Below are positions 1 through 3,757 of a stretch of DNA of 3,757 nucleotides, piece after piece. Origin of the DNA: a virus. Taxonomy: Duplodnaviria > Heunggongvirae > Uroviricota > Caudoviricetes. Where the stretch lies: the IMG/VR virus record IMGVR_UViG_2681813227_000020, positions 1 to 3,757 of that record; one strand, 5' to 3'. The notes under the pieces are model-generated. The model was given only the letters and a program-made list of their open reading frames with translations. It made no database searches and was not told where the DNA came from. The position numbers and the translations under genes were made by a program. Within the stretch, counting starts at the first letter, position 1, and every line of letters starts with the position of its first letter.

Positions 1-786
1 ATGAGTACAGCACTCGCAACGCTGGCAGGGAAGCTGGCTGAACGTGTCGGCATGGATTCTGTCGCCCCACAGGAACTGATCACCACTCTTCGCCAGACGG
101 CATTTAAAGGTGATGCCAGCGATGCGCAGTTCATCGCATTGCTGATCGTCGCCAACCAGTACGGTCTTAATCCGTGGACGAAAGAAATTTACGCCTTTCC
201 TGATAAGCAGAACGGCATCGTTCCGGTGGTGGGCGTTGATGGCTGGTCCCGTATCATCAATGAAAACCAGCAGTTTGATGGCATGGACTTTGAGCAGGAC
301 AATGAATCCTGCACATGCCGGATTTACCGCAAAGACCGCAATCATCCGATCTGCGTTACCGAGTGGATGGATGAATGCCGCCGCGAACCATTCAAAACCC
401 GCGAAGGCAGAGAAATCACCGGACCGTGGCAGTCGCATCCCAAACGGATGTTACGGCATAAAGCCATGATTCAGTGTGCCCGTCTGGCCTTCGGATTTGC
501 TGGTATCTATGACAAGGATGAAGCCGAGCGCATTGTCGAAAATACCGCATACACTGCAGAACGTCAGCCGGAACGCGACATCACTCCGGTTAACGATGAA
601 ACCATGCAGGAGATTAACACTCTGCTGATTGCCCTGGACAAAACATGGGATGACGACTTATTGCCGCTCTGTTCCCAGATATTTCGCCGCGACATTCGCG
701 CATCGTCAGAACTGACACAGGCCGAAGCAGTGAAAGCTCTTGGATTCCTGAAACAGAAAGCCTCTGAACAGAAGGTGGCTGCATGA
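1..786 (+). CDS. bet: Red-beta (Bet) single-strand annealing protein, 261 aa
   Basis: ORF 1..786 translates to [21 protein letters not shown]...KASEQKVAA, which I recognise as near-identical to lambda Bet (261 aa). Stop TGA 784-786 overlaps the exo ATG at 783-785. Confidence 0.95.
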
Positions 787-1463
787 CACCGGACATTATC
801 CTGCAGCGTACCGGGATCGACGTGAGAGCTGTCGAACAGGGGGATGATGCGTGGCACAAATTACGGCTCGGCGTCATTACAGCTTCAGAAGTTCACAACG
901 TGATAGCAAAACCCCGATCCGGAAAGAAATGGCCTGACATGAAAATGTCCTACTTCCACACCCTGCTTGCTGAGGTTTGCACCGGTGTGGCTCCGGAAGT
1001 TAATGCTAAGGCGCTGGCCTGGGGAAAACAGTACGAGAACGACGCCAGAACCCTGTTTGAATTCACTTCCGGCGTGAATGTTACTGAATCCCCGATCATC
1101 TATCGCGACGAAAGTATGCGCACCGCCTGCTCTCCCGATGGTTTATGCAGTGACGGCAATGGCCTTGAGCTGAAATGCCCGTTTACCTCCCGGGATTTCA
1201 TGAAGTTCCGGCTCGGTGGTTTCGAGGCCATAAAGTCGGCTTACATGGCCCAGGTGCAGTACAACATGTGGGTGACGCGAAAAGATGCCTGGTACTTTGC
1301 CAACTATGACCCGCGTATGAAGCGTGAAGGCCTGCATTATGTCGTGGTTGAGCGGGATGAAAAGTACATGGCGAGTTTTGACGAGATGGTGCCGGAGTTC
1401 ATCGAAAAAATGGACGAGGCACTGGCTGAAATTGGTTTTGTATTTGGGGAGCAATGGCAATGA
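783..1463 (+). CDS. exo: Lambda-type 5'-3' exonuclease (Red-alpha), 226 aa
   Basis: ORF 783..1463 translates to [38 protein letters not shown]...GFVFGEQWQ, recognised as lambda exonuclease (226 aa). ATGA overlap with bet stop, the classic bet/exo junction. Confidence 0.95.
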
Positions 1464-1642
1464 AGCATCCTCACGATAATATCCGGGTAGGCACGATCAC
1501 TTTCGTCTACTCCGTTACAAAGCGAGGCTGGGTATTTCCCGGCCTTTCTGTTATCAGAAATCCACTGAAAGCACAGCGGCTGGCTGAGGAGATAAATAAT
1601 AAACGGGGGGCTGTATGCACAAAGCATCTCCTGTTGAGTTAA
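1460..1642 (+). CDS. orf60a: Small exo-xis region protein Orf60a-like, 60 aa from ATG 1460 (62 aa if ATG 1454 is used)
   Basis: ATG at 1460 overlaps the exo stop (TGA 1461-1463) as ATGA; an in-frame ATG also exists at 1454. Protein [60 protein letters not shown]. Size and position match lambda orf60a immediately downstream of exo. Confidence 0.7.
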
Positions 1643-1806
1643 GAACGAGTATCGAGATGGCACATAGCCTCGCTCAAATTGGAGTCAGGTTTGTGCCAAT
1701 ACCAGCAGAAACAGACGAAGAATTTCATACGTTAGCCACATCCCTTTCACAAAAGCTGGAAATGATGGTGACGAAAGCAGAAGCAGATGAGAGAGACCAG
1801 GTATGA
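1615..1806 (+). CDS. orf63: Small exo-xis region protein Orf63-like, 63 aa
   Basis: ORF 1615..1806, protein [64 protein letters not shown]-rich Shine-Dalgarno (GGGGGG 1603-1608) about 6 nt upstream. Overlaps the 3' end of orf60a by 28 nt in another frame, as in lambda. Size and position match lambda orf63. Confidence 0.75.
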   Translation: MHKASPVELRTSIEMAHSLAQIGVRFVPIPAETDEEFHTLATSLSQKLEMMVTKAEADERDQV

Positions 1807-1886
1807 CAACCACTGAATGCATTCTTCTGGCAGCGGGCTTCATATTCTGTGTGCTTATGCTTGCCGACATGGGACTTGTTCAATGA
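1803..1886 (+). CDS. Candidate 27-codon hydrophobic micro-ORF (MTTTECILLAAGFIFCVLMLADMGLVQ), unannotated in the ORF track
   Basis: ATG 1803-1805 overlaps the orf63 stop (TGA 1804-1806) and its own stop (TGA 1884-1886) overlaps ATG 1883 of the next gene, so it is ATGA-coupled on both sides. It encodes an uninterrupted ~15-residue hydrophobic stretch, long enough for a single membrane-spanning helix. No independent SD. Could be chance. Confidence 0.25.
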   Translation: MTTTECILLAAGFIFCVLMLADMGLVQ

Positions 1887-2098
1887 CACCTCAGCAAGAA
1901 AACGCCCTTCGCAGCATTGCCCGTCTGGCTAACTCTGAAATCAAAAAAGCCAGACAGCAGTTTCCGGATAAAAACGTCGATGACATTTGCCGTAGCGTAC
2001 TGAAGAAGCACCGCGAAACGGTAACGCTGATGGGATTCACACCGACTCATTTAAGCCTGGCAATCGGTATGTTAAACGGCGTCTTTAAGGAACGGTGA
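1883..2098 (+). CDS. orf61: Small exo-xis region protein in the orf61 position, 71 aa from ATG 1883 (93 aa if ATG 1817 is used)
   Basis: Open frame 1817..2098. The stretch from ATG 1883 (MTPQQENALRSIARLANSEIKKARQQFPDKNVDDICRSVLKKHRETVTLMGFTPTHLSLAIGMLNGVFKER) looks like a genuine small helical protein. The 22 codons from 1817 (MHSSGSGLHILCAYACRHGTCS) are Cys/His-rich, low quality, and overlap the micro-ORF frame. Gene symbol is positional (between orf63 and orf73), not sequence-verified. Confidence 0.55.
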   Translation: MTPQQENALRSIARLANSEIKKARQQFPDKNVDDICRSVLKKHRETVTLMGFTPTHLSLAIGMLNGVFKER

Positions 2099-2117
2099 AC
2101 ATGAAAAGCAAAATCAT

Positions 2118-2147
2118 CAGGGAGCTACAGGCTCCTTTTTTATTATT
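2118..2147 (+). terminator. Candidate rho-independent terminator inside the operon (hairpin GGAGC-tacag-GCTCC followed by TTTTTTATTATT)
   Basis: Stem GGAGC 2121-2125 pairs with GCTCC 2131-2135 around a 5-nt loop, extendable by A-U and G-U pairs at 2119-2120 / 2136-2137, then a T-run from 2136. Lies in the 98-nt gap between the orf61-position gene and orf73. Confidence 0.45.
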
Positions 2148-2196
2148 CGCATTCACCCTCAAGCGTATTAACCAACAATTCAGGGATTAATGAAAG

Positions 2197-2418
2197 ATGG
2201 CAGACCTCATTGATTCAGCATCAGAAATTGAAGAATTACAGCGCAACACAGCAATAAAAATGCGCCGCCTGAACCACCAGGCTATATCTGCCACTCATTG
2301 TTGTGAGTGTGGCGATCCCATAGATGAGCGAAGACGCCTGGCCGTTCAGGGTTGTCGGACTTGTGCAAGTTGCCAGGAGGATCTGGAGCTTATCAGTAAA
2401 CAGAGAGGTTCGAAGTGA
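2197..2418 (+). CDS. orf73: TraR/DksA-family C4 zinc-finger protein (lambda Orf73-like), 73 aa
   Basis: Protein MADLIDSASEIEELQRNTAIKMRRLNHQAISATHCCECGDPIDERRRLAVQGCRTCASCQEDLELISKQRGSK. Acidic N-terminal helix (D3, D6, E10, E12, E13) followed by Cx2C (C35, C38) ... Cx2C (C56, C59) with an extra Cys at 53, the hallmark architecture of TraR-like proteins. 73 aa, as lambda orf73. Stop overlaps ea22 start (GTGA at 2415-2418). Confidence 0.85.
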   Translation: MADLIDSASEIEELQRNTAIKMRRLNHQAISATHCCECGDPIDERRRLAVQGCRTCASCQEDLELISKQRGSK

Positions 2419-3053
2419 GCGAAATTAACTATCAGGAACTGCGTGAAGCGGCAGCGCAGGCAATGCATGACGACTGGGGATTTGATGTGGACCTTTTCCA
2501 TGAGATGGTAACACCATCGATTGTGCTGGCACTGCTGGATGAACGGGAAAGAAACCAGCAATACATCAAACGCCGCGACCAGGAGAACGAGGAGATTGCG
2601 CTTACGGTTGGGAAGCTGCGTGTTGAGCTTGAAGCAGCAGAGAACAACCTTATTGATAGTGAATGCCATGTTGCTGAACTGGAAGAAGCTCTACGCGATA
2701 AGCAGGCGTTACTTGAAGCCTCAGAAAAGCGCAACGCAAAATTACAAAGCGAGAATGCATACATCCGCAACCGGTACAAAGAACTGGACCTATTAATCGG
2801 GAAAAACATTCTGGTCATGCAGGCTGCCATTATCGAATGGCAGGCAACTGGCGACGCTAAGAGCGGACTAGCATGGATTTATAACACACTGTTTGGCCCT
2901 GGCGAATTACCGGACGAATCTGAGAAAGATGCTCAGGCCTACTTTAATCGCAAATATGCACCGATTGACGAAAAGCTTATGGCGCTTCACAAGTGGTTTT
3001 GGGAACAAAGTGAAGCCGAGCGCGCCGCTGGCATTCGCATCAAAGGAGAGTGA
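2415..3053 (+). CDS. ea22: Ea22-family protein, 212 aa, with a central coiled-coil segment
   Basis: GTG start at 2415 with SD AGAGAGG (2403-2409) 5 nt upstream. N-terminus MSEINYQELREAAAQAMHDDWGFDVDLFHEMVTPSIVLALLDERERNQQYIKRRDQENEEIALTVGKLRVEL and C-terminus ...AERAAGIRIKGE resemble my recollection of lambda Ea22, while the middle (heptad-like, E/A/L/K-rich: ELEAAENNLIDSECHVAELEEALRDKQALLEASEKRNAKLQSENAYIRNRYKELDLL) is different and longer (212 vs 182 aa in lambda). Confidence 0.8.
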   Translation: MSEINYQELREAAAQAMHDDWGFDVDLFHEMVTPSIVLALLDERERNQQYIKRRDQENEEIALTVGKLRVELEAAENNLIDSECHVAELEEALRDKQALLEASEKRNAKLQSENAYIRNRYKELDLLIGKNILVMQAAIIEWQATGDAKSGLAWIYNTLFGPGELPDESEKDAQAYFNRKYAPIDEKLMALHKWFWEQSEAERAAGIRIKGE

Positions 3054-3054
3054 G

Positions 3055-3258
3055 ATGAACGGACAAATCTCAATTGTTCGACCGGGAGCATGTGACGATT
3101 GCGAGATACGAATGATTATTCGTCTGGCGATGGGGAAAACAATAACTGCTCTCATTACTCCAGAAAATCTCGCATTAGCATTAACCGGAAAGTCAGACCT
3201 GCCAGTAGAGCTAAAGCTGCGAAATGTTGAGATTAAGGTGAATATCAGCAATGAATAA
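3055..3258 (+). CDS. Hypothetical small protein, 67 aa, with one CxxC pair (C13, C16)
   Basis: ATG 3055 lies 1 nt after the ea22 stop (TGA 3051-3053), with a GGAG Shine-Dalgarno (AAAGGAGAG, 3042-3050) upstream inside the ea22 3' end. Protein MNGQISIVRPGACDDCEIRMIIRLAMGKTITALITPENLALALTGKSDLPVELKLRNVEIKVNISNE. The ORF-track entry 2893..3258 is this frame extended upstream into ea22. It occupies the position where lambda carries ea8.5, but I do not recognise the sequence. Confidence 0.6.
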   Translation: MNGQISIVRPGACDDCEIRMIIRLAMGKTITALITPENLALALTGKSDLPVELKLRNVEIKVNISNE

Positions 3259-3330
3259 CAATCCTCGCATTCGCGGGGATTTCTTTTATCTGAACTCGCT
3301 ACGGCGGGTTTTGTTTTATGGAGATGATAA

Positions 3331-3498
3331 ATGCACTTCCGAGTCACAGGTGAATGGAATGGAGAACCATTCAACAGAGTTATCGAAGCCGAGAACATCA
3401 GCGACTGCTATGACCACTGGATGATATGGGCGCAGATAGCACATGCAGAAGTAACCAATATTCGAATTGAAGAACTGAAAGAACACCAAGCCGCCTGA
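3331..3498 (+). CDS. Hypothetical small protein, 55 aa, conserved-looking prophage protein of unknown function
   Basis: ATG 3331 preceded by GGAG (3320-3323) at 7-nt spacing. Protein MHFRVTGEWNGEPFNRVIEAENISDCYDHWMIWAQIAHAEVTNIRIEELKEHQAA has a globular-looking composition (aromatic core residues, charged C-terminal helix). Stop TGA 3496-3498 lies in the loop of a strong intrinsic terminator. Below the ORF-track length cutoff. Possibly related to small DUF-type proteins found next to xis in E. coli prophages, but I cannot verify this. Confidence 0.55.
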   Translation: MHFRVTGEWNGEPFNRVIEAENISDCYDHWMIWAQIAHAEVTNIRIEELKEHQAA

Positions 3499-3512
3499 TG
3501 GCGGTTTTTTTA
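3488..3512 (+). terminator. Strong rho-independent terminator (CCGCC-tgat-GGCGG followed by TTTTTTT)
   Basis: Perfect 5-bp GC stem 3491-3495 / 3500-3504 with loop TGAT, extendable by G-U and A-U pairs at 3488-3490 / 3505-3507, followed by 7 T (3505-3511). The loop contains the stop codon of the 55-aa ORF. Confidence 0.7.
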
Positions 3513-3556
3513 TTACCTGATTTGCAGGTTCGATTCCATATTCGGAGATAGCACTC

Positions 3557-3757
3557 ATGCAACACGAACTACAACCTGATTCACTGGTTGATTTGAAATT
3601 CATCATGGCTGATACTGGCTTTGGTAAAACCTTCATCTATGACCGGATTAAGTCCGGCGACCTGCCAAAAGCCAAAGTTATCCACGGGCGAGCAAGATGG
3701 TTATATCGTGACCATTGTGAGTTCAAAAATAAACTCTTAAGCCGCGCCAATGGGTAA
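3557..3757 (+). CDS. xis: Excisionase / AlpA-family helix-turn-helix DNA-binding protein, 66 aa
   Basis: ATG 3557 with GGAGA (3544-3548) 8 nt upstream. Protein MQHELQPDSLVDLKFIMADTGFGKTFIYDRIKSGDLPKAKVIHGRARWLYRDHCEFKNKLLSRANG. The motif around FIMADTGFGKTFIYDRIKSGDLPKAKVIHGRARW is typical of AlpA/Xis-type HTH proteins of E. coli prophages and is not lambda Xis. The position at the end of the left operon fits an excisionase followed by an integrase outside the window. Confidence 0.8.
   Translation: MQHELQPDSLVDLKFIMADTGFGKTFIYDRIKSGDLPKAKVIHGRARWLYRDHCEFKNKLLSRANG

Follow-up and report, generated by a model that had tools for sequence, protein, structure and literature searches.

Which of two overlapping open reading frames (ORFs) ahead of a phage excisionase gene (xis) is a real gene, and does the stop codon of one of them lie inside a transcription terminator? 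The question concerns the 3' part of a 3,757-nucleotide stretch of DNA (the window), positions 1 to 3,757 of the IMG/VR virus record IMGVR_UViG_2681813227_000020 (Caudoviricetes), in which an ORF of 55 amino acids (aa) at 3331–3498 overlaps one of 57 aa at 3251–3424. We find that 3331–3498 is very probably a prophage copy of the phage lambda gene orf55, an assessment that includes the choice of frame and the terminator structure. Both the gene and the terminator are already known, and nothing here goes beyond the standard picture of mosaic lambdoid early operons.

Two overlapping reading frames

The following features, all on the + strand, bear on the choice of frame and on the terminator at its end.

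3320–3323, + strand: Shine-Dalgarno sequence GGAG, nearly invariant in 47 unique homologous regions
3331–3498, + strand: orf55 coding sequence, 55 aa; phrog_676 member with 96.4% identity to lambda lambdap35
3251–3424, + strand: overlapping frame of 57 aa, rejected as a gene (no homologues, in-frame stops, pN/pS above 1)
3488–3511, + strand: intrinsic terminator; stem 3488–3495/3500–3507, loop TGAT 3496–3499, T run 3505–3511

The product of 3331–3498 (Orf55) matches phrog_676 over profile positions 1–55 of 55 (E = 2.3e-39). Its 96.4% aa identity to lambdap35 of lambda, and equally to ORF55 of phage 434 and to further homologues, extends over 55/55 residues. The ORF is preceded by a canonical Shine-Dalgarno sequence, as the initial annotation had stated, with GGAG placed 7 nt ahead of the ATG at 3331. 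Sequence searches of Pfam, NCBIfam, PADLOC and the PDB returned no match for Orf55. The protein has been catalogued at least since the phage 434 record M60848, and a structure model has been published (PMC8614690). It was thus correct to describe a small protein ahead of xis with no established function, although the protein is not an unnamed one.

The substitution pattern points to the same frame. Among 47 unique homologous DNA segments, 12 of the 18 variable columns within the 3331 ORF fall at codon position 3, and these same 12 columns are second codon positions of the 3251 frame. The ratio of nonsynonymous to synonymous changes (pN/pS) in the 3331 frame is 0.12 against lambda and 0.22–0.27 against Klebsiella-type homologues (70–73% nucleotide identity). 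In the Klebsiella-type homologues the 3251 frame has a pN/pS of 1.4–1.7 and two in-frame stops. As judged from these comparisons, purifying selection acts in the 3331 frame only.

The 3251 frame is open in the window, begins with an ATG, has a length similar to that of orf55 and overlaps it by 94 nt. Its ATG occurs in 9/48 unique sequences, its start varies and its length lies between 24 and 62 codons. The sequence before its ATG shows no Shine-Dalgarno motif, its first 60 nt coincide with two terminator hairpins (the tL4 region, described below), and its product has no match in Pfam, PHROG, NCBIfam or PADLOC. It had been proposed that only one of the two frames is real, and that homologues keeping the 3251 frame while disrupting the 3331 frame would speak against orf55; the outcome favours 3331, and the 3251 frame fails every test that was run. 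That 3251–3424 encodes a real 57-aa protein, alone or alongside orf55, is extremely improbable; comparative sequence data already refute it, and the frame is an artefact over the tL4 terminators.

Hairpins on either side of orf55

The TGA of orf55 (3496–3498) lies in the TGAT loop between CCGCC (3491–3495) and GGCGG (3500–3504), as originally described. The stem has 8 bp, including five G-C pairs, closes a 4-nt loop and is followed by seven T. The RNA folds at −13.0 kcal/mol (z = −3.4; 1/200 shuffles folds equally well), and the site is also matched by the terminator scan. The segment homologous to lambda, 434, HK022 and many prophages extends from ~3229–3256 to ~3510 and ends inside the T run, which comprises 6–8 T in most homologues and is occasionally interrupted. 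What follows CCGCC-TGAT-GGCGG with T6–8 varies, with at least five unrelated sequences: the pI/xis region of lambda, the torI module, ORF114 of 434 and HK022, and two more.

Other phage records contain the same arrangement. The phage HK140 record (JQ086370) annotates a 'rho-independent terminator' over the stop of its lambdap35 homologue. Alignment with lambda, HK620, K-12 KplE1 and 434 identifies the hairpin as the positional equivalent of 434 t'-I, with the TTGC-type cII box of a pI-type promoter immediately next to its T run. Two diverged lineages (homologues L107; L117–L119) also have stop-in-loop hairpins, which differ in loop and arms. A Klebsiella prophage homologue has CCGCC-CACTGA-GGCGG and T5 with the TGA in the loop, and the lineage at 53% identity has CTGCC-TAACT-GGCGG, then CC and T5, with a TAA in the loop. 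The fold, this recurrence and the HK140 annotation together identify the hairpin and T run just before xis as a conserved intrinsic-terminator structure.

Other observations weigh against this reading. Where another ORF follows directly (some 434-type variants; L108 and L110), the hairpin is weakened, degenerate or absent; the 434-type stem mismatch leaves −7.4 kcal/mol. In L114 and L116 the orf55 homologue overlaps the next ORF. An orf55 gene therefore need not carry this terminator. No compensatory double changes in its arms were seen in the available sequences, with no formal covariation test, and comparative support for the hairpin is therefore conservation and recurrence only. Its persistence in close homologues (95–99% identical) could be plain sequence conservation. 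Both translation and termination at this locus are predictions, and orf55 is one of six lambda genes that a genome-wide CRISPR interference screen of lambda could not target.

The 72-nt gap at 3259–3330 contains two further terminator-like hairpins, each followed by a T-rich run, that the initial annotation did not mention.

3260–3289, + strand: hairpin 1 and T-rich run; AATCCTCGC-ATTC-GCGGGGATT, then TCTTTTAT
3292–3318, + strand: hairpin 2 and T-rich run; GAACTCGC-TACG-GCGGGTTT, then TGTTTTAT; ends at the ribosome-binding site

Hairpin 1 (3260–3281; −13.1 kcal/mol, z = −5.0) is a terminator-scan match and corresponds by mapping to the 'tL4 terminator' of HK022 (X51962) and the 't-L4' of 434 (M60848). 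In other phages it is swapped for non-homologous sequences, most of which fold stably before the same TTTCTTTTATCTG; three fold weakly or not at all. Because these replacements mostly still fold before the same T run, the pattern argues for a structural role of hairpin 1, probably in termination.

Hairpin 2 (3292–3311; −11.0 kcal/mol, z = −4.7) is a second, tandem terminator-like element by prediction. Its pairing survives a G/A polymorphism (G-U to A-U) in most variants, with the stem weakened in a minority, and the 70–73%-identical Klebsiella-type homologues have a weaker counterpart. The names tL4 (434, HK022) and t'-I (434) and the HK140 terminator are record annotations, none traced to an experiment, and a literature search for tL4, t'I and lambda transcript-end mapping found nothing usable.

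The tandem-hairpin leader, including the Shine-Dalgarno sequence (TATCTGAACTCGCTACGGCGAGTTTTGTTTTATGGAGATGAT), also fronts a different gene (GGAGATGATTATG...), for example gene 19 of Sf6. Loci with this reused leader are L113 (Sf6), at about 1180–1270, and L025, L027 and L047. Since the same leader precedes a different gene in Sf6 and other phages, it behaves as a module independent of orf55.

Transcription through the locus and the role of Orf55

These features suggest the following working model. By analogy with lambda, orf55 occupies the promoter-distal end of the early leftward (pL) operon, and polymerase modified by an N-type antiterminator would read through all three hairpins. Orf55 would thereby be made as a delayed-early protein, and transcription would go on into xis. 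Unmodified polymerase would stop ahead of the pI-type promoter and the excisionase gene, and the terminator would thus insulate the integration module from stray upstream transcription.

We lean towards N-dependent read-through of the hairpins. The gene at the N position in a near-identical prophage has a weak match to the N-peptide family (E = 9e-4, below the Pfam cut-off). The initial annotation had the terminator closing the operon segment, which would hold only when the polymerase carries no antitermination factor; in the phage, N-modified transcription from pL is expected to continue into xis.

The literature consulted contains no expression data specifically for orf55. The gene is listed there among the ORFs of the exo-xis region, a region linked to the lysis-lysogeny decision. 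PMC9239242 cites lambda ribosome profiling in which small exo-xis ORFs were strongly expressed once pL had been induced. The same source cites an earlier suggestion that orf55, orf73, ea22 and ea8.5 are inhibitors of host DNA replication initiation (Sergueev et al., 2002).

An alternative account of the hairpins is that they are chiefly recombination linkers or boundary sequences with little role in termination. Phage-to-phage homology breaks in the T runs at ~3279 and ~3510, the leader is reused ahead of another gene in Sf6 and others, and the HK620 and Sf6 records annotate boundary sequences nearby. We consider this account unlikely. The replacement pattern at hairpin 1 fits a terminator and not a homology linker, and in diverged homologues whose sequence differs the stop codon is still covered by a hairpin with a T run. 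Linker and terminator roles are compatible with each other.

The model of Orf55 gives some indication of what the protein may do. AlphaFold2, run on a 21-sequence alignment that included members at 36–52% identity, predicts a beta-beta-alpha-beta fold (pLDDT 93) that agrees with the published model (PMC8614690). Strands are predicted at residues 2–9, 12–19 and 41–49, a helix at 23–37 and a disordered tail over the last six residues, whose codons form the 5' arm of the stop-codon terminator. Orf55 is acidic (pI 4.9, net charge −6). Its best-conserved positions are W9, N10, F14, E19, E21, D25, H29, W33 and A34; they suggest a hydrophobic core and an acidic patch, as would fit a role in protein binding or nucleic-acid mimicry. 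The likeliest activity, put forward only tentatively, is that Orf55 binds and modulates a host protein in early lytic development.

One specific target has been put forward. PMC8614690 proposes, from an AlphaFold/RoseTTAFold model and docking, that Orf55 is an inhibitor like Gp2 of phage T7, which would bind RNA polymerase at the beta' jaw and sigma-70 at its region 1.1. Several 'RNA polymerase inhibitor' entries do occur among weak structure matches of Orf55 in BFVD, and hhalign sets Orf55 and Gp2 (sequence checked against PDB 2wnm) in the same register, with 31% identity over 42 columns and R45 opposite Gp2 R58. The hhalign probability is 1.8%, however, and neither a BFVD structure match at E ≤ 0.001 nor a Pfam family at E ≤ 0.01 was found. 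Gp2 contacts the beta' jaw through the arginine pair R56/R58 (PMC8614690); at the positions equivalent to these two essential arginines Orf55 has N43 and R45, and distant family members have V, E, H, N or D in place of R45. The resemblance is reproducible but weak and unspecific, and a Gp2-like activity is doubtful.

The position of the stop codon raises a further possibility. In E. coli, translating ribosomes strongly repress a terminator that lies only a few bases from a stop codon (PMC4824070). A ribosome ending orf55 close behind the polymerase would cover the 5' arm and weaken the hairpin. With the stop codon in its loop, the terminator is therefore predicted to be leaky on well-translated transcripts and to work mainly on untranslated or uncoupled ones. 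Taken further, the hairpin would be a translation-gated switch, in which orf55 translation masks the terminator and xis is transcribed, and transcription otherwise stops.

If this were so, excisionase supply would depend on orf55 translation besides N antitermination. The doubled terminator upstream would also be explained: hairpin 1 begins 2 nt past the stop codon of the neighbouring gene (TAA 3256–3258, 1 nt ahead of the hairpin) and would be maskable, and hairpin 2 lies 34 nt further on and would not. We think such gating quite unlikely.

Less likely again is that the conserved element is a small regulatory RNA from the orf55 3' end, terminating at the hairpin, with the protein secondary. 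In E. coli genomes the 3' half of orf55 with the terminator is found at slightly more places than the 5' half (3213 versus 2902, ~10% more), HK620 retains only the 3' remnant and terminator, and many chimeric proteins keep only the C-terminal 30–40 residues of Orf55. A hairpin followed by a U run is also the usual 3' end of Hfq-binding RNAs. The substitution pattern is nonetheless of the protein type across the whole ORF, and the + strand showed no sigma-70-like promoter within orf55 or ahead of it. Rfam gave sub-threshold matches only (isrK, 18 bits against a cut-off of 50). N-terminal-only fragments exist as well, and the remnants are thus explained by ordinary deletion and recombination. 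The RNA reading is very unlikely.

Gene neighbourhood, distribution and related systems

The window ORFs, their Pfam and PHROG matches and prophage comparison identify the window as the exo-xis segment of a lambdoid prophage. Its genes run in the order bet, exo, orf60a, orf63, orf61, orf73, ea22, X, orf55 and xis, where X stands for a 67-aa gene.

1–786: bet
783–1463: exo
1454–1642: orf60a / DUF1317
1615–1806: orf63 / DUF1382
1883–2098: orf61-type gene
2197–2418: orf73, TraR/DksA zinc finger
2415–3053: ea22
3055–3258, + strand: 67-aa gene (X) in the ea8.5 slot of lambda; phrog_1222 full-length, E = 3e-40
3513–3550, + strand: start of the torI-type integration module, mapped from HK620 NC_002730 features by alignment
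3557–3757, + strand: TorI-type excisionase gene (xis); phrog_66 excisionase, E = 2.7e-8

E. coli OkiPb01711 has a prophage, ending beside dsdC, with 99% identity to the window. There, the counterpart of the 3557–3757 xis gene is annotated torI, and that of the 67-aa gene is annotated as a hypothetical protein. The last 35 residues of the 67-aa product also match the C-terminus of phrog_11564, labelled DNA methyltransferase (E = 5e-6). The ea22-like gene of the near-identical prophage (L004 8472–9053) is a RefSeq pseudogene with its N-terminus missing. In the window, ea22 is an intact frame of 212 codons whose GTG start overlaps the stop of orf73, and its product matches Ead/Ea22 of Pfam in full from residue 2.

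Terminator-like sites are frequent throughout the window, with 12 found by the scan against 3.8 ± 1.9 in shuffles, and at least four lie on the + strand of the exo-xis region. A strong one at 2119–2145, between the orf61-type gene and orf73, has the form AGGGAGCT-ACA-GGCTCCTT, then TTTTATTATT. The promoter scan of the window gave two sigma-70-like sites, both on the − strand and away from orf55, and none on the + strand. Rfam searches of both strands gave no known RNA family, only sub-threshold matches from terminator-like hairpins, of which the rimP leader reached 21.5 bits (cut-off 47). The antisense ORFs at 3316–3636 and 3398–3565 have no PHROG match and were taken as chance frames.

Downstream of the terminator, the HK620 counterpart of 3513–3550 is annotated as a 'phage integration' promoter with a cII-binding site, and the promoter role here is assigned by homology. 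The putative cII-binding site of the window, TTACCTGATTTGC (3513–3525), has one mismatch to HK620. A 16-nt sequence at 3522–3537, TTGCAGGTTCGATTCC, equals part of the T-arm of the tRNA-Arg gene argW (sequence checked in E. coli K-12), with a chance expectation of ~0. This match overlaps the HK620-type cII box and promoter, right after the terminator. The matched argW bases directly precede the attachment core (CTGCAGGGGACACCA). The real attR core lies ~300 nt further on, past torI (L004 at 9831–9846), and the 3' half of argW is apparently split by the torI gene.

In K-12 KplE1, a degenerate hairpin occupies the 434 t'-I position upstream of torI (L120 2715–2810), and ahead of it lies ypdJ (...SLTLDEACQFLKIS). 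The ypdJ remnant and the region after 434 ORF114 (L002 905–990) have the DNA motif CAGCCTCACACTCGATGAGGCCTGT in common. We looked for orf55 next to torI in KplE1 and did not find it; ypdJ is an excisionase-like remnant.

Of 5426 complete E. coli genomes, 2306 have one half of orf55 and 2491 have the other. Nearly half of these genomes thus carry the gene, Shiga-toxin phages included, which bears out the claim that this protein recurs in E. coli prophages. At the protein level, relatives come from Escherichia and Klebsiella and from metagenomic and assembly contigs without an assignment. Close relatives directly precede excisionase genes, which belong to at least three unrelated families, and the relatives at 53% identity (L117–L119, about 2230–2662) lie directly after the N antiterminator gene in other lambdoid phages. 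Because of this last lineage, adjacency to xis is a property of the E. coli cassette and not of the Orf55 family. On the sequences compared, orf55 with its flanking terminators is a self-contained mosaic cassette.

Partial copies are common. HK620 (L112 2240–2295) and many E. coli prophages retain only the 3' remnant of orf55 with the terminator, often fused to unrelated N-terminal coding sequence (proteins P0048–P0104); N-terminal-only fragments also occur. Some matches were set aside. A species-representative genome collection returned mostly 96%-identical Orf55, with no added diversity, in assemblies from unrelated taxa, among them Shewanella, Pseudomonas, Chromatium, Oceanobacillus, Kitasatospora and Bradyrhizobium as well as Streptomyces-like and Bacillus-like genomes, which we attribute to lambda DNA contamination. 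Several of these (among L005–L020, L022–L024 and L026) are on contigs of ~48.4–48.5 kb or on very short contigs, with low coverage where the contig name states it. Two long repeat proteins from an exhaustive search (P0115 and P0117) were judged spurious.

The main value of the analysis is correct annotation, in which a catalogued gene and an annotated terminator are met again. Action of Orf55 on RNA polymerase, or gating of the excisionase by the terminator, would bear on prophage induction; both ideas come from weak resemblance or inference. Residual interest lies in how common orf55 is in E. coli and its Shiga-toxin phages, within a region tied to the choice between lysis and lysogeny.

Several known systems resemble parts of this locus. 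T7 Gp2, the epsilon subunit of Gram-positive RNA polymerase and phi29-type p56 are like Orf55 in size and beta-beta-alpha-beta topology, and share with it an acidic surface and the character of a phage early gene. They show no significant sequence relationship to it, the structural scores are low and unspecific, and the arginine pair of Gp2 is not conserved.

Phage morons are promoter–gene–terminator cassettes expressed from prophages. Like them, orf55 is a single small gene between terminators that moves among phages as a unit. Unlike them, it has no promoter-like site ahead of it on the + strand and lies inside an early operon, with terminator-like hairpins directly upstream.

The 434 t'-I terminator is a separate non-coding hairpin (GCCGCA-TCAA-TGCGGC) after ORF114, whereas here and in lambda the hairpin is the coding end of orf55. 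Lambda orf55 has the same ribosome-binding site, preceding hairpins and stop-codon terminator, and is likewise the last gene before xis. The two copies differ by two aa and in the T run, with 6 T in lambda and 7 here. Their neighbours differ as well: lambda has ea8.5 upstream and its own xis downstream, and the window has the phrog_1222 gene and a TorI-type excisionase.

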